In this document: one piece after another, positions 17,400-48,095 of the stretch
How positions within the stretch are numbered: the stretch's first letter is position 1
Layout of the letters: every line of letters starts with the position of its first letter
DNA from: Lophium mytilinum
Taxonomy: Eukaryota
Reading direction: 5' to 3'
Assembly: GCA_010093605.1 (NCBI GenBank)
Contig: MU004197.1
Location: 372,001 to 436,000 of the forward strand
Length of the DNA: 64,000 nucleotides
The notes under the pieces: generated by a model
What the model was told of the DNA's origin: nothing
Seen by the model: only the letters and a program-made list of their open reading frames with translations
Databases searched by the model: none
Translations under genes and position numbers: made by a program

Positions 17400-20290
17400 G
17401 AAAGTAAAAGACCACCTCATACAGTGCTATTAGCATGGAAATTATACGTCTGAAGTTGAACGCGCGGTACATATGCGTGTTAGACTGCGCCTTTGTAGCT
17501 GTCGACCTGATTTGCGCTTTGGAACTTGACTTGCATGATAACTTTATTACACGAGCAGAGCCACCTCATACAGTGCTATTATTGCAGAAAATGCGAGTCT
17601 GGAAGAAAGTGCGAGCTAGATACTCATATTCATCCACACTCTTTCAACCCTCAGTCGATCTACAGCCCCGGAGCCTTTACATTCTCGATTTTGCTACTAT
17701 CCCTATCAAGCCTCCTCGTGCGGCGCTGAAAGTAGAGAAACAACGTGCCTGAGATGAAAATAGAAGCGAATGCATCCCAACATGCATGAATATCTGCTAA
17801 AGACATTGCCTGGGATAGATCTGAAGCCTGCGATAGCTTTCTACCCCATTTATACTTCGGGGACCCTACGACCAGTTCGATTGAGGTGAGGCCCATTGAG
17901 CCACCTCGCACATTACTACCCGCATGGTAACTACACTAGTGGTGAGGTGGGATATATAGCCAATCCTTCTTTACTTCAAGCTTTATGCGTTCAAGAAGCC
18001 ACTACCCTCTCTACGCCTCCGAAAATTTTACACCCAAGTCCGCTCGGATAGGGCCTATGGAGCCACCTCATACAGCGCTATTTTTTTGGCAACTGTATGA
18101 GTAGTTGAGATGGATACGTAGCGAGTCCTCTCGTGGGTCACTTCCCGGTGTTCCAACAGCCCCGGTCCAGTTCAGGCCTCCGGAGACGTTCCATTCAGCG
18201 CGAACTAGATGAAACACATAGAGCCACCTCAGACAACGCTATTCACACGCCAAATGAGCGAGTGATTAGGTTGAACATGCAGCGAGTTCTCTCGTAAGTC
18301 AATTATATGTGTGAAAGCAGCCCTAATCCATTTCACACTTCTAAAACCTCTACACTCACTCGAATCGGGGGAGACTTATGGAGCCACTTCACATCAGCGC
18401 TGCTCTCGTGACAACTGCACGAGTTTATAGGCAGGATGTAGGTGATCCTCCTGTGAGTCAATATTCATGTGTAGAAAGCACCGATCCAATTCACACCCTC
18501 AGAGCCTTTACACTCATTCCACTCTAGCTGGGCCTATGGAACCATCTCATGTGACACTATTCACAAAGGAAGTAAATGTGTAATTAGGCTAGGTCCGTAA
18601 CGAGCCCTCGTCTACGACATGTTTCGTGCATCTTAACGGCCTGTATTCAATTTAGAACTTCCGTCATCTTTGCATACGTTCAGCTTAGAGTGAGCCCATG
18701 GAGGCACCTTCAACGGCGTTATTTGCAAGGCAAGTGTATGCATCTTTAGGCAAATATGTAGCGATTCCCGATGTCGTCCAATTTAGTGGTTGTCAAAACC
18801 CCCTAGCCATTTCACACCTCCGCAATCTTTATATTCATTCGAAGTTGAATTGTGCCCGTAGAGCCAGCTCGTGCGGTGTTGTTACCATGGAAAATCAAAC
18901 AGTATTCGGGTAAGATATGTAGAAGACTTCTTGAACGTCTAATTTTAAACACCTAAAAACCTTGCATCTATTTCACGAACCAGAATCTTCACCTCCTGTT
19001 TGAGATTATAGAACCTCGCCGAGCCACCTCTTATAGCGCTATCCATAAGGCGGTTGTAAATATCTCTAGGTAGAATATAGCATAGGGTTTCCAAAACATA
19101 CCCTTCCATCACGTAAGAAGCTTTCATCTAGGTTATGACTAGGAATGTTTACATCCTGTTCAAAACGGGTCGAGCTCACGGAGCCACCTCGTACGACGCT
19201 ATTCGTAAGGTAAATCCACAATTCTATAGGTAGCTTATACTACGCGGCTTCCAATGCGTCCCGTTTTAGGCACGTAACAGGCTCGCATCTAATCTACGCC
19301 CTAAGAAGCTTTACATTATGTTCGAAACTTTTAGAGCTCGTGGAGCCACCTCTTACGATCTTATTAACATAGAATATACCTATATCTCGAGGTATAGTAT
19401 ATAGTAAGTTCCCCCTAGCTTCTATTTAGAGGATGTAAAAAGTAGACACCTAAATCACGCATTAGAGAATGTGATATCCTATTTACTATAGCGAATACTT
19501 AAGAAGCCACCTCTTACATTACTAATAGCACGGAAAATACAGGAATCTCGAGGTATAATATACCGCGAGCTGTCCTAAACACCAACCCTAAACATGTAAA
19601 AAGCTCCTACCTACTTCCCGCGTTCGAGAACGGAACATCCATTTCTGCTCTCGACGGATTTGCTAGGCCATCCCACGCAGTTGCATTAGACTGAAAAACG
19701 CATTCCTAAAATGAGATCTCTGGCAAGGATATTAAGGAACTTTGGAGATTTAGGTACGGTTATAAGCAAGCGCTTAAAAAATTATAATTCCTAATATATA
19801 AAAAGCCGCTATCCACTTTGCGCCTTTAAGAACGTGGCATCTACTTCTACTATTTATAACCCTTAAGAACCACCCCCTACAGCGGTATCGACCTAGAAAT
19901 CACGCTCGCTAAACGAACCCCCAGCAAAGATGTCGCAAAATACACGATTCTTAAGCATTATATACAGCAACCCCTCGTAAAATCCCAATTCCTAGGATGT
20001 ACAAAGCAGCTATCTACTTCACGCATCTAAGAACGTAACATCCACTTCTACTATCAATAAACCTTTAGAACCGCCCCCTACAGCGCCATCAAGCCAGAAA
20101 TCGCGCTCCTAGAATGAGCTCCCGAGTAGAGACATTGTAAAATACATGATTTCCAACCAATATATATAGCAAGCCTTCAAAAAAACTCTATTTTTAGTAT
20201 GTAAAAAGCGCCCATCTAATGTTCAGACTTGAGAACGTGACATCCATTTCTGCACTACCCGAACCTACGGAGCCACCTCCTGCAGCGGCA
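17400..20290 (+). repeat. Left degenerate tandem array, ~18 units, core GAGCCACCTC..(A/G)CGCTATT; period mostly 158-162 bp, also ~150, 190 and 201-202
   Basis: Cores at ~17412, 17561, 17711, 17901, 18063, 18224, 18384, 18542, 18704, 18864, 19024, 19184, 19346, 19507, 19668, 19870, 20071 and 20273. A second conserved block (TTTACA/GACATC) lies ~35 bp upstream of many cores. Confidence 0.9.
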
Positions 20291-20629
20291 TCACTCCCGC
20301 AAACACTCAGTCCCATCACCCTGAAACGAAGGCGAAATGGTTAGGTACTTAGTATCGTGTCGAATTATGATCTCAAAGCCACACAGTTTAGATCATATTA
20401 TGTCGTTCTCACGGTTTGCACACGCGCATGTCACATTGAAGCCACTCAGCACAGTGTTTGCATAAGCCAGCAGCAGCGCCAGCAGTTCCAATTCTCGTTG
20501 TCTGATTTATCTGATCTCAAACCACCCCCCAAATCTCAACCCCCCTCTCTCCCCTCTGCCACCCCGCCCCACCCCCCGACTGCCCGCAAGCCACCCGCGG
20601 CCCTCCCCAGCCGCCCACCCAACCCCTCC

Positions 20630-23191
20630 TCATTCCTCCTCCTCGGACTCCGTGTCTTCCTCCTCCTCCTCGTCCTCAACCTCAGCCACAGTGGCCGGGG
20701 CGGGAGCGGAGGCGGAGGGGACGCGGCGGCCCCTCGCGGGACCAGCCAGGAGCCCTCGGCGGGTCTGAGGCGGAGCGGGCGGGACGGCCAGGTTCGCCGC
20801 CAGGCGCTTGCGGCGCAACTTCCACAACGCCTGCTGCAGGCCGTTGCCCGTGCAGTACGAGTCGACGTGCTCGGCAATGTCCCCATAGGGGACGATGCCG
20901 TGCCGAGCACGCCACTCGTACTCAAACCCCAGGCAGCACTTCTCCCAAAAGTCCTGGTTCGGGCGCATCAACTTTCCACGCGGCGCGCGCATCTTCCGGT
21001 TCATCGGCAGCTTGCGTGGCCCCTTCGGGGACTTGTCGTCGTCTTCCTCCTTCTTCAGCGACGCGGCGGGGGCAGGCTTGCACGACTTCTTCTCCTTGTT
21101 CGAGGACGACTTGGCCGGCTTGGGCTTGGGAGGCTGTGCGGTCTTCTTCTGCTTCTTTGCTTTGGTTGGCGGGACGTACTCGTCGTCTGACTCTGGGTCC
21201 TTGTACACGTAGAAGTCGCTTCCACCGGCCTCTTCCTCCTCTGGTTCTCCCAAAGCTTCGCGGAACGTGCGGCGGCGACCAGGCGGAGCGGGCGCAAGAT
21301 CTTCCAAAGTGCGGCCTTGGCACTGCTCCATAGGGTGGGGAGCTTCCAGGTCCTGGTGCCACGCGGGCTCGGGAGCCTCCCGCTCATTGACGGTGAATGG
21401 GTCGAACGCGGAGCCTCGCGGGATGCCCGGGCCGTCTTGGAAGAAGTCTCGCTGGTCGTGGAACTGGCGAGAGTTGTCGAGGTTGTGCGAGGGTGCTTGG
21501 CCAGTCGAGGACGGTCGTGAGGCTGAGCTCGACGGTCTCTGGTTGGACTGGGTGGCAGTGCCTGCGCCAGCGGAGGGAAGGAGGTAGGCATTCCTCAGGT
21601 TGCCGGTGGAGGTGTACGGGTTGGTGGGAGGCTGAATAGAAAGACCTCGAGACGCAGGAGAGCGGCGGTAGGCAGACAAATCGGGCAGGCCGGTGGAGAG
21701 GGTGTATGGGCGGCGGGCCGAGTCTGAAGGAGGGAAGATGGGGTCGTATGGCCGTCCACCGAGTCCACGGGCATCTTGCCAGTTGGTATCAGGACCACGA
21801 GCAGCGTTGCGGCTAGGTTGAGCGGCAGTACGTGCGAAAATGCTGAAAGCAGAGGCATCGGATGCGGAGGGTCTCGTTCCTCCCAAGCCGAACCCAGAGG
21901 TAGTATTAGATGCCTGACGACCGGTATTGGTGTGATAGTCGTAGTTGGTCATGTCAAGGGAGGCTGTTTGATCGGACTGAGTACGACCTGTTGTGTTGGA
22001 GTCGGAGTGGGGCATAAGACCAGACGAGCCAAACCCAGTGTTGCCGTAATCTCCATAGCCGAACGACGAGGAGAGATCGGACAGACCCTGACCGAGGTTG
22101 TTACGGTTCGAACGATCAAAGCTATCGGTTCGGTCTCGACCAGTAGAGCTCGCGTTTCCGAAGACACCGAGCTCAGCCAAGAAGTCATCAGAGTCTTGAC
22201 CAGCCGTGTTGGGGGCAATCGAGTCCGCGAAGGCGAAGTCATTCAGGTTCAGATCGTTGCCGGTGCCGGTGACGTTGTCAAAGTCGAAGTCAGCCAAAAC
22301 GTCTGACGGATTCTGGTAGGTAGCGGTGGTGCTGTCGAAGCCCAGGGCAGTCATCAGGCCCGACGTGGCCACCTCGTTGGTGTCAATCTGTCTGAACTCG
22401 AAAGCAGAAGCGAAGTCCGACGAGCTTGGAGCGTCGTTTCCCGTTCTGTAAAAGTCGAGGCCGCTCGAGTCCTCGGCTGCTTCCTGACGACGAGAGCGGA
22501 GCATACTGGCAAGCTCTTCGGTGGTCGCGTCATTGCTCGCAGCCAGACGACGACGACGACGACTACTGGGCGGAGATTCGAAGGGAGGCAAGAGAGTAGG
22601 TGTTGCTCGCTGACCGTTGTTGCTGGAGTTCGAATTGGTAGGAGAATGATTGCCATCCTTGAAGATGTCCATTGGGTTGACAGTCAAGCCATCTCCAGAG
22701 GTGCCGTAGCCATACTCCGATTGCCGCAGACTGTCAACTGCCCACGTAGGTGCATTGCGGTACCGTGCAGCATTGCCAAACTGTGCAGCATTGCCATACT
22801 GTGCAGCATTGGCGTACTGTGCAGTCTGAGGATGCAGGAGGGGACGGTTGCCCTGGTCGTACGCAAATGTGACGTTGGGTCCGTGTCCGTAATTGGCTGT
22901 CATGACATAGGGAACCTCTCCTTCAGCACCAAAGGTAGGAGCCTGCGCGGCGTTCGGGACGGGGATATTCTGGTCATCCTCGCTGGTGACAAGGATGAAG
23001 GGAACCTCTTGGGCAGCGCCATTGTTGGGAGCCGGCTGAGTACCGTGCACGGTGGTCATGTCCTGGTCACCGGGGTTGGCAGATGACGGATGGTCACCAC
23101 GACTGGTAGAGGAGCGATGAGTATCGCCTGCTGCATCTTCTTCGTGTTCGACCTTAACGGAGGACGTGCGTGTGTACTTGGGAGGATCCAT
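20630..23191 (-). CDS. 853-aa low-complexity protein with a C-terminal Myb/SANT-like helical motif and acidic tail
   Basis: Single long ORF. C-terminal FWEKCCLGFEYEW..GIVPYGDIAEHVDSYCTGNGLQQALWKLRRKRLAANLAVPPAP resembles fungal Myb-like domains, preceded by a Lys-rich NLS-like stretch. Domain call is from pattern recognition only. Confidence 0.7.
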   Translation of the reverse strand: MDPPKYTRTSSVKVEHEEDAAGDTHRSSTSRGDHPSSANPGDQDMTTVHGTQPAPNNGAAQEVPFILVTSEDDQNIPVPNAAQAPTFGAEGEVPYVMTANYGHGPNVTFAYDQGNRPLLHPQTAQYANAAQYGNAAQFGNAARYRNAPTWAVDSLRQSEYGYGTSGDGLTVNPMDIFKDGNHSPTNSNSSNNGQRATPTLLPPFESPPSSRRRRRLAASNDATTEELASMLRSRRQEAAEDSSGLDFYRTGNDAPSSSDFASAFEFRQIDTNEVATSGLMTALGFDSTTATYQNPSDVLADFDFDNVTGTGNDLNLNDFAFADSIAPNTAGQDSDDFLAELGVFGNASSTGRDRTDSFDRSNRNNLGQGLSDLSSSFGYGDYGNTGFGSSGLMPHSDSNTTGRTQSDQTASLDMTNYDYHTNTGRQASNTTSGFGLGGTRPSASDASAFSIFARTAAQPSRNAARGPDTNWQDARGLGGRPYDPIFPPSDSARRPYTLSTGLPDLSAYRRSPASRGLSIQPPTNPYTSTGNLRNAYLLPSAGAGTATQSNQRPSSSASRPSSTGQAPSHNLDNSRQFHDQRDFFQDGPGIPRGSAFDPFTVNEREAPEPAWHQDLEAPHPMEQCQGRTLEDLAPAPPGRRRTFREALGEPEEEEAGGSDFYVYKDPESDDEYVPPTKAKKQKKTAQPPKPKPAKSSSNKEKKSCKPAPAASLKKEEDDDKSPKGPRKLPMNRKMRAPRGKLMRPNQDFWEKCCLGFEYEWRARHGIVPYGDIAEHVDSYCTGNGLQQALWKLRRKRLAANLAVPPAPPQTRRGLLAGPARGRRVPSASAPAPATVAEVEDEEEEEDTESEEEE

Positions 23192-26100
23192 GACGTTCGA
23201 CTGGAGACGAGTAGATGGACGGGTTGAGTGAATTGAAGAAGAGGAAGCTGCTCGTCAGACGTCTTCGGCTGTGACGCGAGGAGAGGACAAGGAGATCTTG
23301 CGAGATCTTGATGTGGGGTATGCAAAGAAAGAGGAAGCGTTGATCGTATGAGATGCTTGAGCGACAGCGCTGCGTTCAAGCTGTCGAGTGCGATGCTGTC
23401 GGAGAGTCTACACGCGAGGATTGGCTGACGAGCGCGCGGAGATCTGACAGATAGCGACGAAGAAGCGCTTTCAAGAGCTCAAAGACGGAGAGACAAGTCT
23501 GTTCAGAGGGTTAGCAGGTGTGATGCAAGCCGTGGATGTGATTGGATAGAACGCTTACCTGATGTGGACGCCGGCAGACCGCCACGACCAAGCAGACTTG
23601 GAGAGCTGGAGAGCGGACAGCGCGACGGCAACGTGAAGTGCTGTGCGAGCGAAAACCTAGCCCAAGGGAGAGATCGCTGGGAGGAGGTGCAGATGCAGGA
23701 CCCGCTGATCACAGAGAGGATGAAGCTGCAGACAGGATGTTGATGATCCGAGTGTGATGTAGGGTTGACGGAGGACGGAGGATCGTGAATTTAAAAAGGC
23801 GAGCTTCTGCACACGAGAGGAAGGCGCGTGATCGCGGCGGATTCGGAGCAGGCAGGCCGAAGGCGGTATGGCTGATAGAGGCAGGCAGACGAGGTTCAGC
23901 GCGGGCAGGCTCGCAGACTGTCTCTGGCGACCTGAGCAAGAAGCAGACCAGTGCAAGACGTCTTGACGCTGGCGCGGATTTTGCTGAAGCTGCAGGACCT
24001 GCAATTGGCGGTGTGGGCTGGCGATGTAGCCACAGACTGTGGAGGAAGTCGCTAGCGCAACGGGGCAGGCTTGCGGGCAAGTAGCGCTGTCAACTCGTGT
24101 CTCGAGGCGGACAACGTTTGGCAAGAAGTGCAGTGACTGAAGGAGCCTGTAGCAGGGCAAAGGAAGCTTTCTGACGATCTGGCTCGTGGAATGAGGGAGA
24201 TGTAGAAGGGATGGAGGAGGTGGTGGAGGAGTGAGAGGAGGGGGTTGATATCCGCGAAAGACGCCCTAAAGACGGCCAACTCGAACGTTTATCTGTACAC
24301 CGCACAGACTTCCACGCCGGCTGCCAGTATGATAAGAGCACAGCGGAAAGGGGCGGCTGTCCAAGATATCACGCTGGATACAGGGCTGCTGGAAGACGAG
24401 AGGACGCCCACCGCCTCCAAGGGTGAAGGTGGCCTTGATACGGAGCGGGCCGACAACAGCGCCAGCATCGCCGGCGTGGGCTCAACCGGAGTAAATCCTG
24501 TGATACAGCCTGCCTGAGGATAGGGCTTCCTCATCCAGCATCTACTACAATGGTTTGCAGAGATAGGTACGTCCAATAAGGAGCTGCGCTCGGCGCGTAC
24601 CCCGTCGTGGAAGTTGAGAGGAGGGGAACTGGCCCTAACAATTGACGCATTTCGGCCGACGCTGACAACAGCATAGGTCCAAGAGGATGTCCACGGGCGA
24701 TTGGGACACTCCCCACAAGAATCGCATACTCTCAAGGTCCAGCCAGCGTGGAGCATTTACTCGAGCCATCTTATGAGGACCCATAATTCCGACAGAGCTT
24801 CGGTACAACCCCATGGAAGGGGCCCATCAATGTCTTTCGCCTGACGCTCCAGCTCTGCAACGTAGAGCGGGAAGTTCTTGCACTCAATGAGCCAACGGAG
24901 CCATAGTAGTTGGGAGGGCGGCAAGCATTATGGAGGGGGCATCCAAGTCAACACCCATTGGCCTAAAGGGAAGCAGGTTAGATCCTATCTCGAAGCGTAT
25001 CTGGCATTTTGAAACGGTTGCATCCCATATTCCATGAGCTGATCTCGCGCGTGAATGATGCTTCGGTGTTGCTCTTGAATTGATATCGGACATGACCAAC
25101 GAAGAGGAAGCTTAGGAAGGAACTCTGAGCGATAAAGGCTAGCGTAGTTTATATACGCCTAAAGTCGTCTTCTACAAGCATTAGCATACACTTGTTGCTT
25201 TTGTGATGGTGGAATGGGGTCCCCGATACTCCCTGATCATGTGACCGTGACTACCATGTTCATATTTCGCCAAACGCGCGCCTCTTCCTCCTCTTTTACA
25301 GCAACAAACAGTGCACAGCACCGCACTACCTGCCACACAAATACACCTGTGAGTTTGCCCTGTGAATCCCTGGTACTGCCGCCATCCTCTTGAGGTCTTA
25401 CGTGCGATTGTCTTAGTTTATTCTTCAACCTTTGCGTCCACCTCCAGAAGTAGCATCTTATACGACTAACTCTTCCTTAACCACACATTCTAAAACATCA
25501 TTGCCGCTGCTGTCAGGCCTACACATCTTCAATCAACAACTTGGTAAGTTGGGTTTTGCGTTGCTAAACGTAACATTTGGCGTCCTCCGGCGTATCTTCC
25601 TGATCCTGGCTAATTACGAGGGGAGCAGCAATGGATTTCTGCCTGGTAGGAATCGACCTGGCAAATTCGCCTTCGATTTACTGATGGATGTATAGGTCTA
25701 CTTCGATGCTCAAGAATGGGAGCAAGCCAATGCTTCGGACGCTGGGTCGGATGGCTCTGGGATGCAGCCCCAAAGCGCCAAAGAGGCCGCCAGTGTGAAA
25801 AATGAAGATCTTCGATCTGGAACGGAGAAGGAGGATGGGAAGAAGGAAGGCGGAGACGACGGAGATGCTGGTGAGTCTTCCTATTCATTGTGTGGATCTG
25901 GTGAAGGAGAGATCGAATGTTTTGGGTGGATACCGCTGCTGGTGGTGCCTGAATGCTCGAGATCTGATTGCAGTTCGCTGGTGCTCATGGTCTCGAATTC
26001 CCTCCTGTATCTTTCTGACCGTCACAGATCCGCAATCGAAGTAATGCCGTGGACAATATGGAAGGGAGGATGATGCTGGAGGAGAGTTGAAGGGCATGGG

Positions 26101-30435: not shown

Positions 30436-31446
30436 ACAAAGGAGACGCAGATGATGGCCTCGCCGCAGAGAATCAGCCCTCCCCTCTTTGAATCTGGGTA
30501 TGGCCTTGATGGAAATGCGGCGCCATATTTTGCCCCTTCATGAAACCCCTGAAGAGTTCATCATCACGGAATCTTCATGGACAATCTGAACTGCTTAACG
30601 TGTGCAACTATCTACTGGACTGAGCATGCATCTGCACCCTCCTGGGAGACATCAACTGTCCCCTTCAATTCCATATGCCCGGGAGGGGTTGGGACCGCGA
30701 GAGCACTACCAAAATGCCACCTCAAACCCCCTGATCTGGTCTCCATGCTGTCGACATCACGGCAGTGGCTGAATTGCACTGTCCGGCTTTAGCTCTATTG
30801 CAGGGGCTTGAAATCGTTGAGCAAAAGGCACCCCCTTGGCATAGTGTTCAGGCCAATAGGGGCCCCTCAACCCCTCGTCCCCTAGTCCAAACGACGGCAG
30901 CTACTCCCATCAAATCCGGTTTGTTGAGTCTGGACTCCACGATCCGGAGCGGAGTCTCCTGAGCCCGAGAATCGCATTCCGAAAGCGGTAATAGACCAAT
31001 GAAGAGGGGAGGCTATGGAGACTCCCCAGACGGCGGCATGCAGCAGCAGTAGCTTGAGCTCCTGCACTTCATTTAGACTGTATCCCATAGAAAGACACCG
31101 ATTTTCGTGCACTTTTAAAGCACCTGGGCTAGTCTTGCATTAGCGCATAGCCGGAGTCAGCGCTTGTAAGGGGCCCCCTACCAAACTGAGACCTCCGAAG
31201 TGCCGACGCCTAATGCACGATTGTGCACACCGCAACGATAAATCGTCGATATATTCCGTTTTTGAAGCTGTTGAGCGAGCTGTTGAGCTGCACGTTAAGC
31301 TACGTGTCGTGTAGGACGTCTGGAATTACGGTATATAGCCTCGGGGCTCGTAGGTAGCTGTGCATCATTAGAAAACTCCATACAGCCAATTTTACGTGCT
31401 GGTTCTTCATCTATTGTGCTTGTTAGCCGTAAATCTCTCTCTCATC

Positions 31447-34020: not shown

Positions 34021-34636
34021 AAAATGAGCTATATACGACTTTTTGAAGATTCTCAATGCATCGAGCATAACTTTGTGAGTAGCTATTGTTAGATTTGGTG
34101 GCAAACGCTAACAAACGAGAAATCCAGCCCCCTTGCACGGTGCTACGTCGCATCAGGCTTACGGCTTACGCGCACGAACCGACGCTAGCAGCTGTCTTTC
34201 TATGGGATGCTCCGTGGCGGTCTAAATTTGCACTCAAATCAGTCGGCGCTATTGGCTGCATTCTGGCCGTGCATACATTATCAGGGGCCCCTTGGCTCGT
34301 TCTGACGAGTCGATCTGCTTCGAGACTCGCAGATCGTGAACCAGACCGCCTAGCGGCATGCCAGAGGCTTATACTAAGATCTGCTGCTTGTCCAAGGGGT
34401 CATGTTATATGTTTGCTGTCTCCCTCTAAGGACATTCAGACACTGCCATCACGGAGCAATTGTAGTCACGCAGTGATAAGATCTCGATTGCAGCAAGAAA
34501 AGGACCTTTGTATTCCGCTCAGTCCGGGTATATTCGCCCACCCCTTTTACAACGCCAAAAGACCGCCGAAGCTCTTCCACCAGCAGTTGCTATGCCCGAA
34601 GGCCCACCCAACTCCCGCTGAATCTGCTCTCTCCTC

Positions 34637-35233: not shown

Positions 35234-37037
35234 GTTGTGGCTGTTGACGTTGTCTTTGTGTGTGTGAAGTGGATCTTGAGGATGTTTGTGGTTGTGCGGC
35301 TGTTGATTGTCAGGCTTAAGATTTGCGGGCGGCCGTTTGAGGCTTTGGAAAAGTCGGTCTTGGCACAGCTTCTCAGGCGGCAAGGCCGCAATCCACGCCG
35401 ATTCGCGCCCTTCACCCTGGAGGGCTGCGAGGGGTGTGAGAGTGTCAAGCCCAGTCTGACGGCGTCAAGCATGTATCCAGGAGGCTCACTCACCGTGCTA
35501 GAATGGGGTGTGGGCATGGAAACAGGCCGCGCGGGCATCATTTGAAGCTCAAGGGGAAAACGCGATGATATATGGCATGAGATTGAAGCTAGAGGCTCTG
35601 ATACTTGCTGCCACAACGAAGCTTGCGGAGGCACTCGAGGAGCTGAGCAGGGTGCCATACCTGATCTGATATTGGCTCAAAATTTCGTCCCATGGCGCTA
35701 AAGAGGCATTCTACCTGGATTTTGAGCCGGAATCTCGCCATGGCTGCATAATAGACCCAAGGTTACGCTATCTCGGTTGGGGCACTCTAATCAGACGCCA
35801 AAAGGTAGCATTTTGAGAGGCTGTTGGCGGTCTTGATCCGCCTCATGGCCTACCATTTTGAGATGTCATTTCCCAGCACCATGAAGTAGGACAAACTAAC
35901 ATATATTCTGATCATAGCAATAGCCAGTTTGAGGAACCCGGAATGAGAAGTCCAAGGGAAAAAGGTAATGACACAAGATAAGAGATCTTACCCTACCTCG
36001 CCCAGGAAGACTCTTTAGAAGAGTGTTGCCGATGATGAAAAGGAGCCTCGAACCGCATCTACCATTTGAAGTAACCTTGGAACGAGAAATTAGAGGCGAC
36101 AGGCTCCTTCCGAGGTCTTGCAATGCAGCTTCCTACAGCTCTGAAAATGCCCCTGAAAGATGTCGATGATGCAGAAGCTGCGCAAAAGGTAGGAAGGAGT
36201 GGCCTGACATCGACCCTTTCTTGTCCACGATCAAGCCACGCACAGTCTCGAATGTGATATTCAAGCGCATTCGGAATCCCGAAGATCTGTATAAACCTCC
36301 AGATTCAACTTTGCGGTGAATGGTGTCGAGCTTCAGGCGTTGTGTTGAGGTCAAGTAAGTCGAAGCATGGCGGGCGCCCCTGAAGATGCAGCAACATCAA
36401 ACTACCACCGCACACTTTCCAAAACTATGCTGCCGCTTTGCATTCAGCTCTGAAGACGAGTCTTGAGCTGCTTGGGGGCCAGCAGTCTGTTATTTCATGT
36501 AAAATTGGGGAGATATCAATCACTTCTCAACCTAAATCACTGCTCTCTATCAGGACATCCTTCACTCCTGCAGGTAGATACTTTCCGCTTTATTAGAAGA
36601 CTATGAGGAATATATTGACCGGGCCCTCAGGGGGGTGAATGTGAGATGCAAAAAGTCTCCTATCTTGAGTTGAGGACCCAATATCAACCCCTGGGCTCTT
36701 CAGAGCATCGTTTCCACCACCCTTTGCGTGCCACAACTGATCTACCCCGACTATGTAAAGTACCAAATTTTTGCTACTCGATGATAGGCTTCATCGCGCA
36801 CCGTGCCAAGCCTTTTCTGGTGTCAATTAGACTGTCCCATTTTCAGTGAGCCTTCTTCAACGTCACCTGCACTCGCTCACCACACCTTCAACCTCCACCC
36901 TTCATCACACCCTTCACACGCCCTTTGCATGACGCACTTCTCGCGCACCTCTCCATTGCCTTCGAGTCGATCCTGCTCTTCCGTCCTTCCTTCATCCTTT
37001 CTGCTTCTTTCTTCCGACTACTCAGCACCACGGCAGC

Positions 37038-40000
37038 ATGTTTGGGTACACGCTCAAGTATCCTCCCCGGGGCTTCGCTCCTCCGGAGGCAGGTTAGTAC
37101 AGCTATTCAGCAATGGCTTCAAGAGATCGATGCTAACCTCCTCGCAGAGTCTGTGAAGAAGCAGCCTCGTGAAGGTCGGCAGCCGTTGATGGGCATCTGT
37201 TGCGGTCTATGTGCACAAGCTAACAGCACAACAGAAACGGCCGAAGAACGTGCCATTCGCGCCGAAATTCGGTTCAATCTACAGGAGAGCAGGGCGCAGT
37301 TCCGTCATGTGCGCAATGTGCTGGACAACTGCTTTGGGGATGATGAGGCCGACCATATCACGCCTGACCCGCACGGCGATCGCGGGGACAGGGCGGAGGT
37401 TGAGGCTCTCGTCAACAAATTGCTGAGGATAAAACCCGGAGCTGCTCCTCCAGCGCCTTCAGTTCCTCTACCTCCTCCACCCTCACCTTCGACGCGACCA
37501 TCCGGCTCTGCATCAGCTCCATCGCTCCACGGCTTGGGCATCTCCCTCTCTGAGGTTGCAGACGACATGCCTGACTCTCCCTTCTTCCACGCCCAGCGTC
37601 CAGGCGACGGCTCAGGTCGTCTCCGCCGTCGAGCTTCGTCACCAGATCTCTCTGAGCTACGTCGAGAGGCATCGTCATCTCCAACTCCGACCATTGCATC
37701 GCGTCCATTTCCTCATCAGCAGACTCTATCTGAGCGTTCCGACATCGCCCCGCCGTACGAGCCCGCTGAGCCGTCCTTGTCGGCTTTCTCATCTTCGTCG
37801 TCGACTCTAGAGCTTGTAGCCTCTTCGTCATCGCCAGCTCCGATCATCGCACCGCGTGATCTTCCGCGTCGCCCGACACTCCCCGAAAAAGTAGCTTTTG
37901 CGTCACCGTATGAGCAGGCCGATTCGTCCTCGTCGGCGCTGTCTTCTTCGTCGTCGATCCTCGAGCTAGGAGCCTTCTCTTCGCCATTCCGCAACCCAAC
38001 CGTCCCACCCCGCCAGTTTTCACGGCGTCCAACATTAGCTGAGCGCGCAGCATCTAGCTCACCATATGAGTCTGCTGAGCCGTCGTTGTCGAAGTTTTCT
38101 TCCTCTTCCTCCTCGAATCTCGAGCAGGAAGCCTCGTCGCCATTCAGCACCCCGACCATCCCACCCCGCCCATTCCCACGGCGCCCGACCTTAGCGGAGC
38201 GTGCAGCCTCTTCCTCGCCCTATCAGGCAGTCGGACCATCGCTGTCGAAGTTCTCCTCATCTTCCTCCTCGACTCTTGAGCAGGAAGCCTCGTCGCCATT
38301 CAGCACCCCGACCGTCCCGCCCCGCCGATTGCCACGACGCCCGACCTTAGCGGAGCGTGCAGCATCCTCCTCGCGCTATCAGGCGGCCCAACCGTCGCTG
38401 TCGAAGTTTTCCGCGTCCTCCTCGACGCTTGAGCAGGAAACTTCGTCACCATTCCGCACGCCGACCAACGCTGCACACCAGCTCCCACCTCGTCCGACCC
38501 TAACTGATTGTGCTGCTTTCTCGTCGGCGCATGAGCTGGCACAGTCGTCGCTGTCGGTCTTCGAGCGTTCGTCGTCTTCCTCATCTTCGAACCTGGAGAA
38601 TGCAATCCCTTCATCATCACCGATGTCGACGTTTGGTGGACGTGAGTTCCCTCGCCGACCAACCCTTGGGGAGATGGCTGCCTCTGTATCCCCATTTGGA
38701 CCAGCGGCAACAGCGTCGCCGCTTGACCTAAATACCTCTCCTCCATTGTCTGTCTCGACTCTAGGAGCGCGTGAGTTTCGTCGCCGGCCGACTCTCGCAG
38801 AATCCACAGCGTCTTCCTCGCATGCTCCAGCTGTGACCGCGGGTCCCTTCCCTCGCCGTCCCACACTTGAAGAGCAAGATGAGTTCTCTTACTCCAGCTC
38901 AGCTATCGCTTCAGCCAATCACCCTCGCCGACCAGCCCTGCAAGAGCATGCATCTTCGTCAAACCCGTTTCACCGTCGCGCCTCATCGCCGACTCCGCCT
39001 TCGACCTTGCGTCAGGAGATCTGTCCGCCAAGCGTGACCTCCGAGAGCACCGTCAAGCCGCGCCACCGGCTTACGGAGGAAAGGATCAAGGCCCTCGAGC
39101 GCAGCCCGCCCAACATCAGAGATCATCCACTGTTCTCAGGCGTCATTCGCGAGGGTGAGGTTAGTAAGGAGTATAGTCACCGTCACGTACCCAGCTACCT
39201 CTACAACAATTCCTTCCGAGACCTAGAGAATCGTGGTCGGGAAAAAGGTCTCATCTACCCCGACTTTGAGAACCCATTCCCCGCCGGCAAGCTCCCTGCC
39301 CACTTTGATGATGAGAACACACGTGGACATGACAAGGTTCGCGCAATGCTCGTCGAACGCTGGGAGGCAGAGGTACCACGCCGTAAAGTGCCTTCGCCTG
39401 AGCTGATCGCCGCCTCTGAGTCGCTCAAAGAACAGATCCTCCACCGCAAGACCACCTACGAAGACGCATCCGAGCCCAAGGCAACGCGCCCGAGTCTGAA
39501 GAGCGCTTTCAGTTTCAACATGCTCCACAAGTCCCCGGAGGATGCCCGCAACGCTACCTTGAGTCGTGAAAACTCCAAACCGCTCTTCTCGTTCAAGTCT
39601 AAGGGCAAAGAAAAGGCCAAAGTCGCTGGTTTCTTCGACGCTTCCGCCGCTTCTACGGACGAGCTCCGGTGTGACAAGGCCCTACGCATCGCCAGGAAAG
39701 TGCTGATTGAGCTTAATTCTCACATAGGCATCAGTCAGTCCGGCACTTTCGAAGATGAGAACACTCTGAGCGCGCACATCAACCGCTTTCATGCCGGGGA
39801 AGCATTCGCTCGCACGTCCGAAAAGCTGGTAAATGCAGGCCAGTACCTCATCAGCCCCGTCCGAGGAAAGAAGGATGATGCAAAGAAGCGTAGTTCAAAC
39901 AAGGAGAACAAGGGAGAGGATAGTAGCCCATACAACGACGCGACGTCACGTGCGAACCAGATGGAGGACATCAACCGGCAGAAGATGGAGATCATGCAAG

Positions 40001-40746
40001 TCACTACGGGTGGCACCGAGGTCGGTTGGGCCGTGTGGTTCGTTGAGTGGGCGGAAGCGTGGGCCGCGGAGCACCACAAGATCCTCAAGAAGGAGAAGGA
40101 AGAGCTGAAATCCCCCCTCGCCGTCGCCATAGACGAAGAAGATCCGGAACTTTCGCCATACGTGCACTTTCCAGCAGCAGACCGGGCGTGGCTCGCGGCC
40201 ACGCCGCGTGAGCCCAGCACCGAATGGGCCCCCTTTTCGTCCAGCGGCACGCGACAAAAAGGCACCCCGGTGCACGAGAGAGTGGACGCTTGGCAAGCTT
40301 CTTTGGCCGAAACCAACCACCGCGAGCAGCAGCGCCAGACCTCCAAGCAGCGGAAAGTGTCGGAAGAAGAGGAACAAATGACGGAGTGGGCAGAAGAACT
40401 TCGCGAAATGGCGGAAGTAGCAGCAGCACGCGCGGCCACGCTCGCGGCCCTGGAAGAAGAAGAAGCCCCCGAAGCCCCCACGTCGCCCGCCTCTGCCCTC
40501 CCCTCCCCCTCCCGCGACCTGAGGACTTGGACGCCGCGTGCCCGCCCGCGCCCCGTCACCCGCATCTCCGCGCCCCGCGCCCTGATGCTTCCGGCCGTTG
40601 TTGCGGGGACTATGTCCCACGCGGAGGCCCTCGCCGCGGCCTCCTCGTCCCCCCCGCGTGCCGCTGCTGCCCCGTCCGCGTCCCCCTCGGCGTCCCCCTC
40701 GGCGTCCCGCATCCCCCGCTTCAAGGGCGGAAAGCGTGGTGACTAG
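37038..40746 (+). CDS. ~1200-aa Ser/Pro-rich protein with 52-aa internal tandem repeats; exon 1 37038-37092, intron 37093-37147
   Basis: 3.8-kb open frame. ATG at 37038 splices (GTTAGT..GCTAAC..CAG) in frame into it. Repeated RRPTL units and a charged helical C-terminal part; no family recognised. Confidence 0.75.
37700..38950 (+). repeat. Coding tandem repeat, 156-bp/52-aa unit, about 6 full and several shortened copies
   Basis: TTAGC anchors at 38035, 38191 and 38347 (156-bp spacing); unit RRPTLAERAASSSPY..EPSLSKFSSSSSS.LEQEASSPFSTPT.PPR. Confidence 0.9.
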
Positions 40747-40869
40747 AGTGACTTCTTTTGACCGGTGTGATTTGGCCCTGCTAGGTGTGGTGTTTTCCGG
40801 GTCGGTGGGTGGGTTGGAGCGCTTCGGCGCGGTTAGGTAGTCAATGGAACTCTGTGCCGTTGATATTGA

Positions 40870-43800
40870 AGCGTCTGAAGTGGTGATTTGCATGTGTGAT
40901 GGCGCTGTTTGGGGTGGCCCGTGACCTTGAGCACGATTTAGATGGGATGTAAAGGTTTCGAGGCTTCATATTGGGAGGGGTGGGAATGTAGGCTTTTGAC
41001 AGCTGTTTGATGGCGTTTGAGGTGGCTTATGGGGGCGTAAATGTTGGGCACATGATGTCAAAGTTTGAAGGCTTCATATCGGAGAGGGTGGAATTGCAGG
41101 GTTTTGACAGCTGTTTGGTACCGTCTGAGGTGGCTTGGGAGGGTGTAAATTTCGTACATACGATGTTAAATTCCTAAGACTTTATATCGAGAGGGGTGGA
41201 ATTAGGTGTTTTTGACAGGTGAATACCGGTGTCTGAGGTGGCTCGTCGAGGTGTGAATATTGGGATTGGATGTTAAGGTCTGAAGACTTCGTATTGAAAA
41301 GGGTGGAATTGGAGGGGTTTGACCGCCGTTTGGTACCGTTTGAGGTGGCTTGGGAGGGTGTGATTGTGAAGGGCATGATGTTGAAATTTGAAAGCTTCAT
41401 ATTGGAAGGAGTCTAAATAGGCTCTTTTGACGGTCGTTTGATACTGTTTGAGGTGGCTTAGAAGGGCGTGAATATTCTATATGCAATGTCAAATTCCTAA
41501 GGCTTTATATCACGAGGGGGGAAATTAGGGGCTTTTGATAGGTGTATACCGGCGTGTAAGGTGGCTTATCGAGGTGAGAACGTTGTACACACGATGTCAG
41601 AATTTTGGGCATTTATATTGGCATGGGGTTGATTGAGGGCATTTGACAGCCTTATAGCGGCGTTGGAGGTGGCCCAACGAGGTCAGAATGTGGTGCACGC
41701 GATGTCAAAGTTTTGATTTTTTAGATTGTAAGCAGCCTAATTCGGGGCTTTTGACAGCTAGTTGACGGTGTTTGGGGTGGCCCGTCGAGGGGAGAACATC
41801 GTACCCGCGATGTCAAAGTCTCGAGAGCTTATATTGGAAGGGGGCATTTGATACGTTAATAGTAGTGTTTGAGGTGGCCTGTTAAGGTAAGAATAAGGTG
41901 GCCGCGATATCAAAGTCTCAAGGCTTCAAATCCCAAACGGCCTGATTCGAGGCATTTGACAGCTGGTTGGTGGCGTTTGAGGTGGTTCCTCAAGGTGTGA
42001 ATGTTTTGCACGCGATGTCAAAGTCTTAGGGCCTCAAACCAGAAACGCTCTGATTCGGGGGCTTTGACAGTTAGTTGATGGCGTTTGAGCGGCTTCCTAG
42101 GGGCGTAAATACGGTGTACAAGAGGTTCTTGCCGGGTAGTTAGTAGCGTTTGAGGTGGCTCGTAAGGGGTTGGACGCTGGGCATGTAATGTCAAGGTTTC
42201 GAGCCTTCATATTGGAAGCGGTCTAGTTCGGGAGTCCTAACGACTGTCTGATGGCGTTTGAGTGGCTTCATGGGGCCGTAAATTTGGTGCGCGAAGGGCA
42301 TTTGACCGGTGCATAGCGACGTTAGAGTGGCTTCATCGAGGTGTAAATATGGAGCCCGCATGGGATTTGGCAGGTAGTTAGCATTGTTTGAAGCGGCTTG
42401 TGGGGGTGTAGATTTAGTGGGTATAGGGGTTTGACCAATGTATAGCGACGTTGGAGTGGCTTTGAAGGGGTGTAGATGTAGAGCACACACAGGGTCTTGA
42501 CGACCTTTTGATGGCGTTTGAAGCGGCTTATCGAGGTGTGGAATTAATGTACATAGAGGCTTTGACCGTTGTATAGCGACGTGGGAGTGGCTGTAGAGGG
42601 GTGTAGGTGTTATACATACAGGGGCTTTGGCCGCTGTTCAACGGCGTCTGAAGTGGCTTCTGGAGGTGAGGATGTTGTGCACATTGAGATTTGGACAGGT
42701 GGTTGGCGGCGTTCGAGGTGGCTAGCTGGGTTGTGAATGTGATGTATGTAGGGACTTTGACAGACGATTGGCGCCGTCTGAGGTAGCCTACGAGGGTGCA
42801 AACATAGTGCACATAGAAGTTTTGACTGTTGTTTGACGGCGTTTGGAGTGGCTCATGGAGGTGTGGATGTGGCGCATGCAAGCGATCTGATACGTGGTTG
42901 GCGGCGTTTGAGGTGGCTCGTGAGGATGTGGATAGCTTGCACACCATCGGTTTGATAGTTGTTTGGCGGCGTTCGAGGTGTCTCACATGGTTTCGTGAGC
43001 TCTATCCGTCATGCCAAGGCCGCAAGAGCTTGAATTGAAAGGGAACTGATTTTGCAAATATGAAGATATGAAATTGCGTTGTGTTCCATTTTGAGCTATC
43101 TGGGTGTGAGATTTGCGCGTGTGTTGCCGATGTTGGCAAGGCTTCACGGGGGTGTGAATATTGTGTACGTGATGTCAAGAATCCGAGCGTGGGAATTAGA
43201 TAGGGCGAAGATAGGGCGGGTTTACAGCTGTTTGCCGGTGTTTGAGTGGCTTCGTCAGGTTTTCATTCCCGCGCACATGATGTCAAAGACCGGACAGTGG
43301 ATATTTCAGGTGGTATAGATTTATAGATAGAGAGCTATGAAAAGCGTCCGCTCTCGATTTCAAGCCGTGTACGTACGCGGTTTGCACGTGTCCTGACGGC
43401 GTTTAGGGTGGTTCGTGAGGTTTGAAAAGCCGTGCACGCGATGTTGAGGATGAAAGAGTTTGAATTAGATGGGGTGTAATCGCGGACTTTTGACAGATGA
43501 ATAGCAGTGTTCGAGTGGCTTTATCAAGGTGGACATGTGGCACGCGTGATTTTAAGGATGTTGAGCTTGAATTTGAACGTGCTTACATATTTGGTTAATG
43601 AGCTATGGGAATGCAGTGTTCTCGATTTCGTACCGTGTTACTCGGTGAGTTGCACGCGTGCTGCCGCCGTTTGAGGGGCCTTGCGGGCTCCAGTGCAATT
43701 TGGGCATGATGTAAAAGACCATATCCCGTATATGGGGAGGTGTGTAAAAGTAAGCTTTTGACAGGTGGATGACGGCGTTTGAGTGGCTTCGTGAAGGCCG

Positions 43801-46800
43801 GAAAGTGATACACATGATATTATAGATCTGAAAGCGTGAATTGCAGGGCAATCAACGCTCTACATATGGAGCTATGGAAATGTAAGGCTCCCTAACTTGG
43901 GTCCGGTAAGTGTGTGGTTCGCACGTGTGTTGACGCCGTTTGAGGCGCCTTACCAGGCCTAGCGCAATTTGACACGATGTAAAGGATTGTAGGCTGTAAA
44001 TTCAAACCGGCGTAAATGGAGCAGTCTAACCGATGTACGGCAGCGTCTGTAGTGCCTCGTGGGTATCTAAATGGTCTACATCCAAAGTTCAGGCTCCGAG
44101 GCCGCGAAGGAGAGAGGAGTAAAAGGATAGATTTGTTGCTGCGAAATTTCGCAACATTCCAGTCCAAGGGTTGTTCTTGATCTATTTGTGCGTGTGTTGA
44201 CGTCGCATGAGGCGTCTCGCGAGGTCTAGTGTACCCGGAATGCGATGTAAAGAACCGTGGACCGCGGATCAAAGGGGACTTAAATGTAGGGGTTTGACAA
44301 GTGATTGACGGCGTTTGGGTGGCTCCGTGAGGGCTTGAATGTGGTACTTGTGATGTCAAGATTTTGAGACCATAGAGGAGAGGGAATGTGAATGCATAGG
44401 TATTGTGCTACGAAATCTCCTGGCATTTCAACCCAAGGGGTGTGTTCACTCCATTTGCACGCGTGTGAACAGCATATGAGGTATCTTATGAGGTCGAGCC
44501 CAATTCGAGCGTGATGTTACAGTTCTGAGCCCCTAATTGGATGCGGCGTACACAGAGGGATTTGAGAAGTGGTTGATGGCGTTTGAGAGGCCTCGTAAGA
44601 TCCCAAAAGCTCTGCGCGTCATCCCAGTGACATGGGAGTGGGAATTGGCGGGGCTTCATTGCAGGCGATCAATAGTTGTTTGAAGGCGTTTGAGGGGGCT
44701 TGGGTGATCGAGCCTGATCCGAAAACGATGTCAAATCCTCAAGGCCTTGAATGGGAAGGGGTGTAAACAGTAGGGTTTGACAGGTGGTGCACGGCGTCCG
44801 AGGCGGCTTGTGAGGTTTATCCTTCTTCGGACATGATGTAAAGGACCGTAGGCCGTATATCGACGGGGTCGTAGACGGACTTTCTTGCAAGGCGGTGAAC
44901 AGCGTTAGAGGCGCCTGCTAAGGTTGATCTTAATTTGATATAATATAAAGGGCCGTAGTTTGCATATCAAAAGGCACGTCAATGGCGGGTTTTGGAAGGT
45001 GTAGAGCGGCGTTTGTGATGTCTCGCGAGGATGAGCCTAATTTTGACGCGATGTACAGCCCCGTAGGCCAGGGATTGGAAAGGCTGTGAACAAAGGGGTT
45101 TCGCAGCTAGATAGCAGCGTTTGAGGCGTCCCGTGAGGCCTAACCTGAGTTCAACGTGATGTAGAGGATCGGTAGCCGTTAATCAAACGAGACATAAATG
45201 GAGGGCGTTGACAGCTCGCTGCCGTTGTTTGAGGCACCTGGCGAGGTCGAGCCCGATTCGAACGGATATCAAGATCTTGAGGCCGTGAACTGGAAATCAT
45301 GTGATCAAAGGGTGTTGACGGGTGTTTGACGGCCTTTGAGGTTTCTCGTGAGGTTGAGCGCGGTTTGAACACAACGTCATGGTTTCCAGGCCGCAGATGA
45401 GATGAGCTGCAGCTGGACTGCTTGCTAGCTACTACAAATGCGCTACCCTCCAGTTTCGGCGGTGTAAGTGTGTGACTTGCACGTCTCTTAACAGCGTTAG
45501 AGGTACCCTGTGACCTTAAGCGCGATTTGAGCAGGATGTAAAGGATCCGAGTTCTTAAAATGGAAATGGTGTAATTCGAGGGTTTTGATAGGTAGTTGAT
45601 GATGTTCGGAGGACCCCGTAAGTTCGAGCCCGATTCGAACATAATATCAAGGTTTTGAGGCCGTAGACTAGGTGGTTTGCATTCTAAATGGTCCCTAGCT
45701 ACTATTAGCGCTATGATGCTCATTTTGAGACGTCTTAGCGTATAATGTGGATGTAGCTTGACGGTGTTTGCGGTATCTTGTAAGGTCAAGCCTGTTTGGA
45801 ACCGATGTGAAATTCTCGGGGCTGTAAATAGAAGGATCTGCAGTCGGATTGCTTCCTAGCTGCTGGAATGTCTCTGATCGAGATCTAAAGCCATATGAGT
45901 GTATGGTTTGAACACGTCTTGGCAGCGTTCGAGGTTTCTCGTAAGGTCCAACGCAATTCAAAGACGATGTCAAAGTTTCAAGGCCGTAGATCGGAGAGGT
46001 TGCAATTACACTACTTCCTAGCAATGAAACCGCACTACTCTCTGTCTCGATACGAGTGAGTACGGGATATGCAGCTCCAGCGGCGTTTGAGGAGCCTCGT
46101 GAGGTCGACCGCAATTTAACACGATGTTAAGAGCTCGAGGCCAGAGATTTGGGGAGGTTCAAAGGCAACTAAGCCTAAGACACCTACAACGCTCCGCTCT
46201 ACATCCTAAGACGTGTGGGTAACCGAATTACACGTATCCTACCGGCGTATGAAGTGTCTCGTAAGGTTACCCCCGATCTGAGCGCGATGTCAAGAGTTGG
46301 ACGCCAAAGATCAGTAAAATGCACTCGGATTGACTCTTAGGTACCGATAATGCTCCATTCTTCGTTCCGAGACTTTTGGGTAAGTGTCTTGCACGGGTCC
46401 TGGCGCCGTTTGAGGTGCCTTGTGAGGCCTGGTCCAATTCGGGCACGATGTCAAGACCTCGAGGGTATAGATTTGGGGAGGCGCCATCGGAATGCTCTCT
46501 CCTGACGGAAGTAGTCCGCCATTCATCCTAGGGTGTACGGACGCGCGTTATGTACATGCAATAGCGGCGGTTGTGGTGTCTCGTAATGTTGAGCTCGATC
46601 TCTACACGATGTAAAGAACTGGAGACCTAGGATTAGGCGGGTATAATTGGAAGGCTTTCCCAGGGAATGAAACGCTTCAACACCTATCTAGAGACGTATT
46701 TGTGAGCGTTTTGCGCGGGTTTTGATGCCGTTTGTGGTACCCCATGACCTAAAACACGAACTAGGCATACTATTGAGGATTTAAGGTTGTAATTTGAAAA

Positions 46801-47870
46801 AGGGGTTGATTTCGCTTCCGGTTGCTGCTAGGAGCTTTTTCGTCTTCATCCGAGGAGCAGCAAAAGTGTATCTTGCATTCACGATAGCGGCGTTTGACAT
46901 GCCCCGTGACCTCGCATCCATCTCAAACAAGATTTGAAGGCTTCGGGGTCGTGGACTAGAAGGAAGGTAGTTTTGCTACCTATCGCGAGCGAAATGTCTC
47001 GATTCTTCAATTGAAGGTACTCTTTCTAGCGATTTGAAAACACGATGATGGCATCTGAGTGGCCCTGTGGTCCTAATCACGAATCAAACACGATGTCAAG
47101 AATGCGAGGTCGTGAATCGGAAGGAGTGTGATTTATCTCCCTGCCAGTATTGAAATAACTCGACTCTTCGCCTCCCGGTGTGGATTCGAGTGACTTGGTC
47201 GTTCAATAGCGGCGTCTGAGTGGTTCTGTAGGGTCGAGGAAGAGTAATACGTGATGAAAGGTTTCGGGACTGTAAAATGGATGGGGCTACATTGGAAAGT
47301 TTCGCTCAGTGACTGGTAGTGTTTGAGTGACACCGTGAGATAAAAATGGACTATCTATGATGTAAGAGGCTAGAGGTCGTAGATCAGAGCATGTAGAATC
47401 TCAGTACTTCCAGCTACCACAAATATTTCACCGGCAATTTCGAGCCGTGGGTATGAGCGATCTGACAGTGTGATAGCGGCGCTGAAGCATTCTGGATAGG
47501 GATGGACTACTACATTTGATCCAAAGGTTTCCGAATCTCGAATCAAAAGGAGATGAGTGGAGTGCTTCAACAGGTGGACCGTGGCGTCTGACCGGCTCCG
47601 TGGGGCTGCGAGGGATCTTGCTATAATACATAAGACTCGAGGTTGTAGACTTGCTAAAGCAGAATTGCGATGCTTCTGGCCATTCGAAATGATTAACTAT
47701 ACATCTTGGACCGTGCATGAATGCGATTTGACGGCGTGCTAGTGGCGTCTGAAGCGTTCCACAGGAGTGAGGGAGAAGTCCCCGAGGTGTAAACAATCCG
47801 ACATCTTGAATTGGTGGGAGCGTAATCGGCGGGGTTGTGTGGTTGGAAGTTGATATCAGGTGATCTGGGC
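40870..47870 (-). repeat. Right degenerate tandem array, ~60 units, core GGCGTTTGAGGTGGCT..GATGT(C/A)AAG..TTTGACAG; reverse complement of the left array family
   Basis: Cores at 40913, 41021, 41129, 41237, 41344, 41452, 41560, 41668, 41776 (108-bp period); 42262-42977 (65-bp period); 43139-44587 (alternating 108/161); 44587-45340 (108); 45611-47220 (161). Confidence 0.93.
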
Positions 47871-48095
47871 ACCGCCACCCAGCCACAGTCCAGCCCCACT
47901 TTAGCGAGCTGCTGCTGCCTTGCGGGTACAAACCCTGGAAGGATCACAACACCTGCCAAGCTTGACTCAACCTCACCTCTAGCATATGTGAGTCGAAGGC
48001 GCCCTCTATTCTTTCCTCCACCTCACTCCATATGCCGAAGGCCTTTTGACAGCTGCATCCATCTTCGCAACGGAGGCGGCGTTTCATCTCCAACC

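Follow-up and report, generated by a model that had tools for sequence, protein, structure and literature searches.

In a 64,000-nucleotide (nt) stretch of Lophium mytilinum DNA (contig MU004197.1 of assembly GCA_010093605.1, positions 372,001 to 436,000 of the forward strand; referred to here at its full length as the window), two tandem-repeat blocks, opposite to each other in orientation, flank a segment of about 20.6 kb. They are tentatively read as inverted copies of one old, non-coding, satellite-like family that would constitute candidate binding-site arrays held under length constraint, a reading given a probability of about 0.42. The two arrays are taken to be homologous because a core motif and a second box are common to both at a 35-bp offset, and because left and right outer 161-bp units match at 38% identity against 26% for shuffles. 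They look constrained because unit length is far tighter than neutral accumulation of insertions and deletions (indels) predicts and because the conserved columns cluster. A preliminary description of this DNA had proposed that all core spacings are whole numbers of helical turns and that the arrays could serve for end synapsis by a transposase; the helical-turn claim is a marginal, fitted regularity, and the transposase link is wrong.

Conserved boxes and unit length in two inverted arrays

Core positions were obtained from an iterated nhmmer model, a motif scan and reading of the sequence. Of the anchors, 54 of 56 on the right and 10 of 18 on the left were matched by the nhmmer core model at E<=20. 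The remaining right anchors were taken from earlier model rounds (42585) and from tandem-repeat family D3 (43136); on the left, the motif scan at no more than one mismatch supplied 17709, 18382, 18862 and 20271, and 18540, 19667, 19868 and 20069 were placed by reading the sequence. Two weak outer right copies, at 47325 (E=20) and 47751 (E=0.16), with spacings of 107 and 426, were excluded from all statistics.

The 74 cores (18 left, 56 right) yield 72 spacings, and these match exactly the discrete classes of 65, 97, 107-108, 149-150, 158-162, 190 and 201-202 bp reported for both arrays in the preliminary description: 64-66 bp (n=12; 64 once, 65 ten times, 66 once), 97 (n=1), 107-108 (n=25; 107 six times, 108 nineteen times), 149-150 (n=2; once each), 158-162 (n=28; 158 twice, 160 five times, 161 fourteen times, 162 seven times), 190 (n=1) and 201-202 (n=3; 201 twice, 202 once). 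Deviations from the class mode either do not exceed 3 bp or reach 11 bp and more, and none is of 4-10 bp. The variants had been said to differ by 11, about 41-43 or about 53 bp. Alignment bears this out for the 97-bp unit, which carries a clean 11-bp deletion, but not for the 149/150-bp units, which align with one 8-nt gap plus small gaps, nor for the 190-bp unit, which is a 161-bp unit plus about 30 nt. Since this insert sits at another place than the 40-nt insert of the 201-bp units, derivation of the 190-bp unit as 201 minus 11 was rejected. The 64-66-bp unit corresponds to the 108-bp unit minus a 43-bp segment that carries the GATGTCAAAG box.

A core resembling GTTTGAGGTGGCTC is found in every unit, and a second box, GATGT[C/A]AAG, begins 35 bp after it in both arrays wherever a unit belongs to the 108, 161 or 201 class, but is missing from the 65-bp units. 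Between the left 161-bp units (L161) and the right outer ones (R161out), core and second box are the parts that survive, and the 161-bp length is also common to both arrays. Columns with a major base at 0.9 or above number 38/108, 15/65, 13/108, 23/162 and 24/161 in five of the six unit classes, where equal rates would give 21.2, 7.1, 4.4, 9.7 and 9.6 (P<=0.0035), an excess of two to three times, and they cluster in boxes; the sixth class, R161mid (n=6), has 22/161 against 16.0 (P=0.093). In the middle and outer right units (44209-46412) the core leans, by an unquantified tendency, to the palindrome GAGG-NN-CCTC, for instance GAGGCGCCTC in the R108mid consensus, the form that would be expected for a dimeric binding site. 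The 7-nt core word GAGGTGG is presumably also part of the human minisatellite core, a match that is probably due to chance.

The units are old. Within classes, identity is 0.50-0.64 and the Kimura two-parameter (K2P) distance 0.51-0.88, with a ratio of transitions to transversions of 1.04-1.51 and transversions at 14-24% of the compared sites. No two units exceed an identity of 0.79, and the mean stays level from lag 1 to lag 7, which argues for age without ongoing homogenisation. Repeat-induced point mutation (RIP), which produces transitions only, was rejected as the sole cause of the divergence by the transition-to-transversion ratios of 1.0-1.5 and by the composite indices, which are mildly raised in the arrays (right -0.29, left +0.05, flanks about -0.6).

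Despite this divergence, the standard deviation (SD) of unit length is 0.44 bp in the 108 class (n=25), 0.43 in the 65 class (n=12), 0.97 in the right 161 class (n=17) and 1.19 in the left 161 class (n=11). Neutral simulations, run mostly with 1-bp indels, gave SDs this small with a probability of at most 0.0009 in each of the four classes when 0.05 indel events were assumed per substitution. At 0.02, a setting equal to 0.05 with only 40% of the substitutions counted, the probabilities were 0.0002, 0.071, 0.003 and 0.049. The indel ratio was taken from general knowledge and from one diverged piggyBac copy of the same genome (19 gap letters per 97 mismatches).

Core and second box would thus be candidate sites for one or two sequence-specific proteins. 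Selection would keep both boxes and their spacing, the rest of the unit having drifted close to randomness, and the length classes may go back to a handful of block indels (of 11, 43, 53, about 30 and about 40 bp) whose products were then amplified locally. Several points weigh against this reading. The length argument leans on the assumed ratio of indels to substitutions and on a star-like history, and the units were sorted into classes by length, so that variants of 11 bp or more fall outside the class SDs. Part of the divergence, mostly in the left array with its GC content of 0.44 and raised composite index, may be due to RIP, which adds substitutions without indels. TTTGA, the word with the strongest enrichment in the right array (73 occurrences), shows none in the left (4 occurrences), and the motif set is therefore shared only in part. 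Conservation, moreover, was assessed within one genome.

From its outer to its inner end the left array shows spacings of 149, 150 and 190 bp, eleven of 158-162 bp, and then 201, 201 and 202 bp. The right array begins on the inside with 108-bp units (one of 97 bp among them) and continues outward through 65-bp units, six 161+108 pairs, seven 108-bp units and 161-bp units (Table 1); a higher-order repeat of about 323 bp gave no clear signal across lags. The arrays are unequal in size (2.9 kb left, 6.9 kb right) and differ in their unit classes. The right stretch 41006-48999 was reproduced with 0 differences by a separate contig assembly, possibly from the same reads. Array GC content is 0.44-0.52, thus not AT-rich. 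Strand asymmetry is strong: the right array has a plus-strand GC skew of up to +0.35 with T in excess of A, and the left array is its mirror image.

Both arrays are non-coding and neither is a known RNA. Scans of both gave no Rfam match and no tRNA, the unit lengths 65, 97 and 161 are not multiples of 3 as a coding repeat would require, and no long plus-strand open frame crosses 40.9-47.9 kb. Spliced-contig cover from one run, not usable as expression evidence, was 0-2.8 per bin in the right array against 9-335 in the flanks; on this side both genes neighbouring the array have RNA-contig cover. Literature searches, which were not aimed at the motif itself, gave no description of these arrays.

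Table 1. Coordinates of the arrays, their sub-blocks and the neighbouring features in the window.
Feature	Position	Strand	Description
Left tandem array	17400..20300	-	18 cores at 17410-20271; array-strand core consensus ATAGCGCTGTATGAGGTGGCTC
Right tandem array	40880..47770	+	56 cores used, 40911-47218; core consensus GGCGGCGTTTGAGGTG[C/G]CTCGTGAGG
Right inner sub-block	40911..42260	+	eleven 107-108-bp units; also one 97-bp unit (41774-41871) and the first 65-bp unit (42087-42152)
Right sub-block of 64-66-bp units	42260..42975	+	eleven units
Right sub-block of alternating 161/108-bp units	42975..44585	+	six pairs; 269-bp higher-order period
Right sub-block of 107-108-bp units	44585..45338	+	seven units
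Right outer sub-block	45338..47218	+	eleven 158-162-bp units and one 108-bp unit; homologous to left 161-bp units
Compact piggyBac-like transposon	31082..34208	+	3.1 kb; perfect 16-nt inverted ends 31082-31097 and 34193-34208
874-aa open frame, host gene	20633..23254	-	3' end about 340 bp from innermost left core
1298-aa open frame	36850..40746	+	3' end about 130-165 bp from first right core

Possible helical phasing of the core spacings

The helical repeat of B-DNA is about 10.4-10.6 bp. The spacing pattern had been interpreted as near-integer numbers of turns at 10.6-10.8 bp per turn, and in its strict form this would mean that neighbouring cores face the same side of the helix for cooperative binding, so that only whole-turn changes are tolerated. 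The integers assigned to the seven classes imply, in order, 10.83, 10.78, 10.80, 10.68, 10.73, 10.56 and 10.61 bp per turn; the implied repeat thus drifts between 10.56 and 10.83, and no single value fits all classes. At a period of 10.5 the mean cosine is only 0.14 for the seven classes and -0.09 for the 72 spacings, every class being 0.10-0.33 turn off, and at 10.4 it falls to -0.53 and -0.59. At 10.75 the 190 class is 0.33 turn off and the 201.5 class 0.26 turn off.

The best single period, 10.66, reaches a mean cosine of 0.765 over the seven classes, and the abundant classes 65, 108 and 161 alone give 10.76 with a mean cosine of 0.97 (P=0.034). For periods of 10-11 the seven-class fit has P=0.016 against seven uniform random lengths and P=0.012 against an indel-tree null that mimics the derivation of the classes from each other; for 9.5-11.5 it is P=0.029. 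Significance is lost at wider ranges (P=0.11 for 8-20, P=0.22 for 5-40), and a period of 13.50, physically meaningless, gives 0.767, equal to the fit at 10.66. What stands of the near-integer claim is therefore a fitted repeat that slides with the class.

Long-range coherence was measured as the resultant length R of the core positions. It peaks at 10.804 bp in the right array (R=0.62) and at 10.684 bp in the left (R=0.75), the half-height width being about 0.05-0.1 bp and R not exceeding 0.15 at 10.4-10.5. The two arrays need different periods, and against random class lengths the right-array coherence has P=0.056; the proposal that the core is kept on one face of the helix over kilobases is not upheld. 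Accordingly, of the cooperative protein-binding scaffold built on it, the apparent constraint on length and boxes persists, but a single helix face over kilobases is unsupported.

Within units, the harmonic near 10.7 bp is inconsistent: a period of 9.8 exceeds it in R108in and one of 10.05 in R161out, it lies outside the five strongest periods in R108mid and L161, and it is strongest only in the 65 block. Since it is not consistently strongest, an ancestral sub-repeat of about 11 bp was rejected as the cause of the spacing pattern.

The strict helical rule also draws on the lack of departures of 4-10 bp from the class modes, on the clean 11-bp deletion of the 97-bp unit and on the consensus distance of 21 bp between TTTGAC and TTTGAG in the right array. 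Other distances do not obey it: core to second box is 3.3 turns, and the inserts of about 30 nt in the 190-bp unit and about 40 nt in the 201-bp units are 2.7 and 3.8 turns. As the pattern was moreover spotted after the fact and at one locus, such a rule is considered unlikely. Helical phasing of the array spacings is suggestive only, and the closeness of the class lengths to multiples of about 10.7 bp is a weak regularity that may reflect it.

The piggyBac-like element and the genes around it

The only transposase found between the arrays belongs to a compact piggyBac-like transposon of its own (Table 1), which is apparently intact, transcribed and multi-copy. Its inverted ends, ATCCCATAGAAAGACA, are the only zero-mismatch matches to this sequence in the window. 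The Pfam domain DDE_Tnp_1_7 (piggyBac family) lies in two in-frame open reading frames (31372-34020) with a cysteine-rich C-terminus; a 126-nt GT..AG intron (32442-32567), which is removed in a spliced contig, holds both in-frame stops. Other genomic copies leave the window sequence right after 34208, sharing AT after GGG and then diverging, and short deletion derivatives join 31146 to 34141/34143, keeping about 65 nt of each end. Most differences between the copies are C>T and G>A changes (57 and 71 places in the X1 contigs), whereas each kind of transversion accounts for 8-14. Outside the 16-nt ends the sequence reads GACTGT and GCTCCG, with no TTAA duplication visible.

The arrays are not the ends of this element. 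They lie 10.8 kb (left) and 6.7 kb (right) away from it, and the core word, at no more than one mismatch, occurs once inside it, in the coding region at 31921, and is absent near both ends. End synapsis of the arrays by the transposase, as previously suggested, does not hold, since the gene sits between perfect ends at which its copies and derivatives also terminate and since the outer ends of the array pair have no inverted terminal match (best local inverted match 21; shuffles, mean 21.2 and maximum 35).

Three further observations concern the surroundings of the element. A second repeated sequence lies directly to its left (30730-31002), with a depth of 293 against 161, copies that differ at transitions and loose ends at 30730 and 31002. 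A spliced contig of 4829 nt (X3 record 19; 32117-37088) runs from inside the transposase gene across the right end at 34208 as far as a joint at 37088, and its GT..AG introns lie at 32442-32567 and at 34075-34127; it may reflect transcription that reads through out of the transposon, or two transcripts joined in assembly. The sequence CCCGTAGAAAGTAAAAG at 17394-17410, on the outer edge of the left array, resembles the piggyBac-like end in 11/14 bases, and matches with 3 mismatches occur at chance level (8 found, 5.0 expected in the window).

Each array occupies intergenic DNA of this filamentous ascomycete, just 3' of an outward-facing gene. The product of the left-hand inner gene has 100% identity with an annotated hypothetical protein of the dothideomycete L. 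mytilinum and 69% identity with a hypothetical protein of Mytilinidion resinicola; the match in a second genus marks it as a host gene, and it lies within the bracketed segment. It has no Pfam family, and its Atlas matches are weak (0.76-0.85), with one cluster named Myb-like that serves as a lead only. The 1298-aa frame on the right has no Pfam family and no homologue was found for it; it is covered in parts by spliced contigs and contains five 156-bp tandem repeats (37795-38556), 61-89% identical to the reference copy, that encode a 52-residue Ser/Pro-rich protein repeat. A segmental inverted duplication was sought, and neither the two inner genes nor the two outer genes are homologous to each other.

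The arrays could also be mobile-DNA relics, that is, decayed repetitive inverted ends of a giant foldback-type transposon whose boxes were transposase sites and are now functionless, or one array split by an inversion of 20-30 kb. The layout of homologous, inverted arrays bracketing a segment favours this explanation, and a single inversion through one ancestral array would also produce it; the foldback-like elements Galileo (PMC3688188) and Tetris (PMC4079207) provide precedents, with long inverted ends that contain tandem repeats and multiple transposase sites. Additional contigs of at least 80% similarity point in the same direction: with a depth of 256-287 against about 160 and loose ends into other sequence, they indicate similar units elsewhere in the genome, though their cover is confined to 41006-42339, some 1.3 kb of the right array, and a second complete copy did not appear.

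Against such an origin, neither array alone has a terminal inverted match above shuffles, nor does the pair at its outer ends; the arrays lack definable ends, and no target duplication was found at the outer ends. Among the 44 interior frames scanned (at least 90 aa, of 74 listed; Pfam E<=0.1), no other transposase domain appeared beyond sub-threshold noise. The interior host gene with its relative in another genus, the unequal arrays built of different unit classes, and a unit length that a dead relic would not keep at such divergence are likewise difficult to accommodate, and the relic explanation is regarded as doubtful.

Metagenome loci encoding relatives of the transposase (80 in all) contain many arrays with a period of 102, 105 or 109 bp. 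None is homologous to the window arrays (0 nhmmer matches at E<=0.01), and their consensus units, as printed, read as ankyrin repeats, which would make them coding DNA of neighbouring genes. Being ankyrin-like coding DNA and not homologous, they were dropped either way as an independent test of phasing. Such arrays occur at loci L002, L004, L008, L010, L011, L019, L029, L037, L064, L066, L068, L071, L072, L075, L079 and L080; L068 in addition holds a compact element with 50-nt inverted ends (9177-9226 and 11504-11553).

Satellite behaviour and known systems

A neutral satellite would have acquired its length classes and their near-common divisor as accidents of a few amplifications, with length kept by a low local indel rate or by undetected homogenisation. 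The marginal phasing statistic, which is gone once the period range is widened, the few independent classes and the equal performance of a meaningless period all agree with this explanation, and satellite monomers are commonly of nucleosomal length, a range that includes 161 bp (PMC8122249). However, the observed length SDs would need fewer than 0.02 indel events per substitution, column conservation is strongly uneven, the boxes and the 161-bp length are common to arrays that are only 38% identical, and no sign of recent homogenisation was seen. Neutral drift is thus an improbable account. Least plausible is the proposal that the paired arrays form a selection-maintained lattice of protein sites, tolerating whole-turn changes only (about 10.7 bp per turn in chromatin), that brackets and organises the 20-kb gene segment, for example as boundary or loop anchors.

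Should selection really act on unit length and on the two boxes, as in the preferred reading of length-constrained binding-site arrays, the locus would offer a compact, sequence-resolved functional satellite in gene-rich fungal DNA, and its natural spacing variants (65, 97, 108, 150, 161, 190 and 201 bp) would make the question of what sets satellite monomer length directly testable. Were the phased lattice true, it would reveal a non-centromeric, non-transposon role for a phased satellite. Annotation of 17.4-47.9 kb as a giant transposon would be an error, because the mobile element proper measures 3.1 kb.

Iterons of plasmid and viral origins are directly repeated binding-site-like motifs in units of about 20 bp. 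The arrays share with them the direct repetition of site-like motifs, including TTTGAC and TTTGAG in the right array, but differ in having units of 65-201 bp, tens of them over kilobases, on a eukaryotic chromosome with no initiator gene nearby. The ends of piggyBac carry 13-bp terminal and 19-bp internal repeats within about 200 bp, bound by the C-terminal cysteine-rich domain (PMC5861402). A transposase of this family with a cysteine-rich C-terminus is encoded between the arrays; these, however, lie kilobases outside the element's own ends. Foldback-like ends such as those of Galileo and Tetris are matched by the presence of two inverted tandem-repeat blocks and of repeated short motifs as possible multiple sites, and the Tetris end repeats can seed satellite arrays (PMC4079207). 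Here, in contrast, terminal inverted sequence, target duplication and cognate transposase are missing, a host gene lies inside, and the divergence of the arrays is 10-50 times what active ends would show.

The known kind that these arrays resemble is that of satellites in which a protein box and the monomer length are retained, for example centromeric ones with a motif like the CENP-B box (PMC8122249). The arrays differ from them in measuring only 2.9 and 6.9 kb, in lying between genes, in having classes of 65, 108, 161 and 201 bp side by side and in not being AT-rich, and a centromere role, for which one would expect binding of the centromeric histone and one large array on each chromosome, is without support. 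The likeness lies in tandem non-coding units, a short conserved box in diverged monomers, a fixed monomer length and a 161-bp class in the nucleosomal range.

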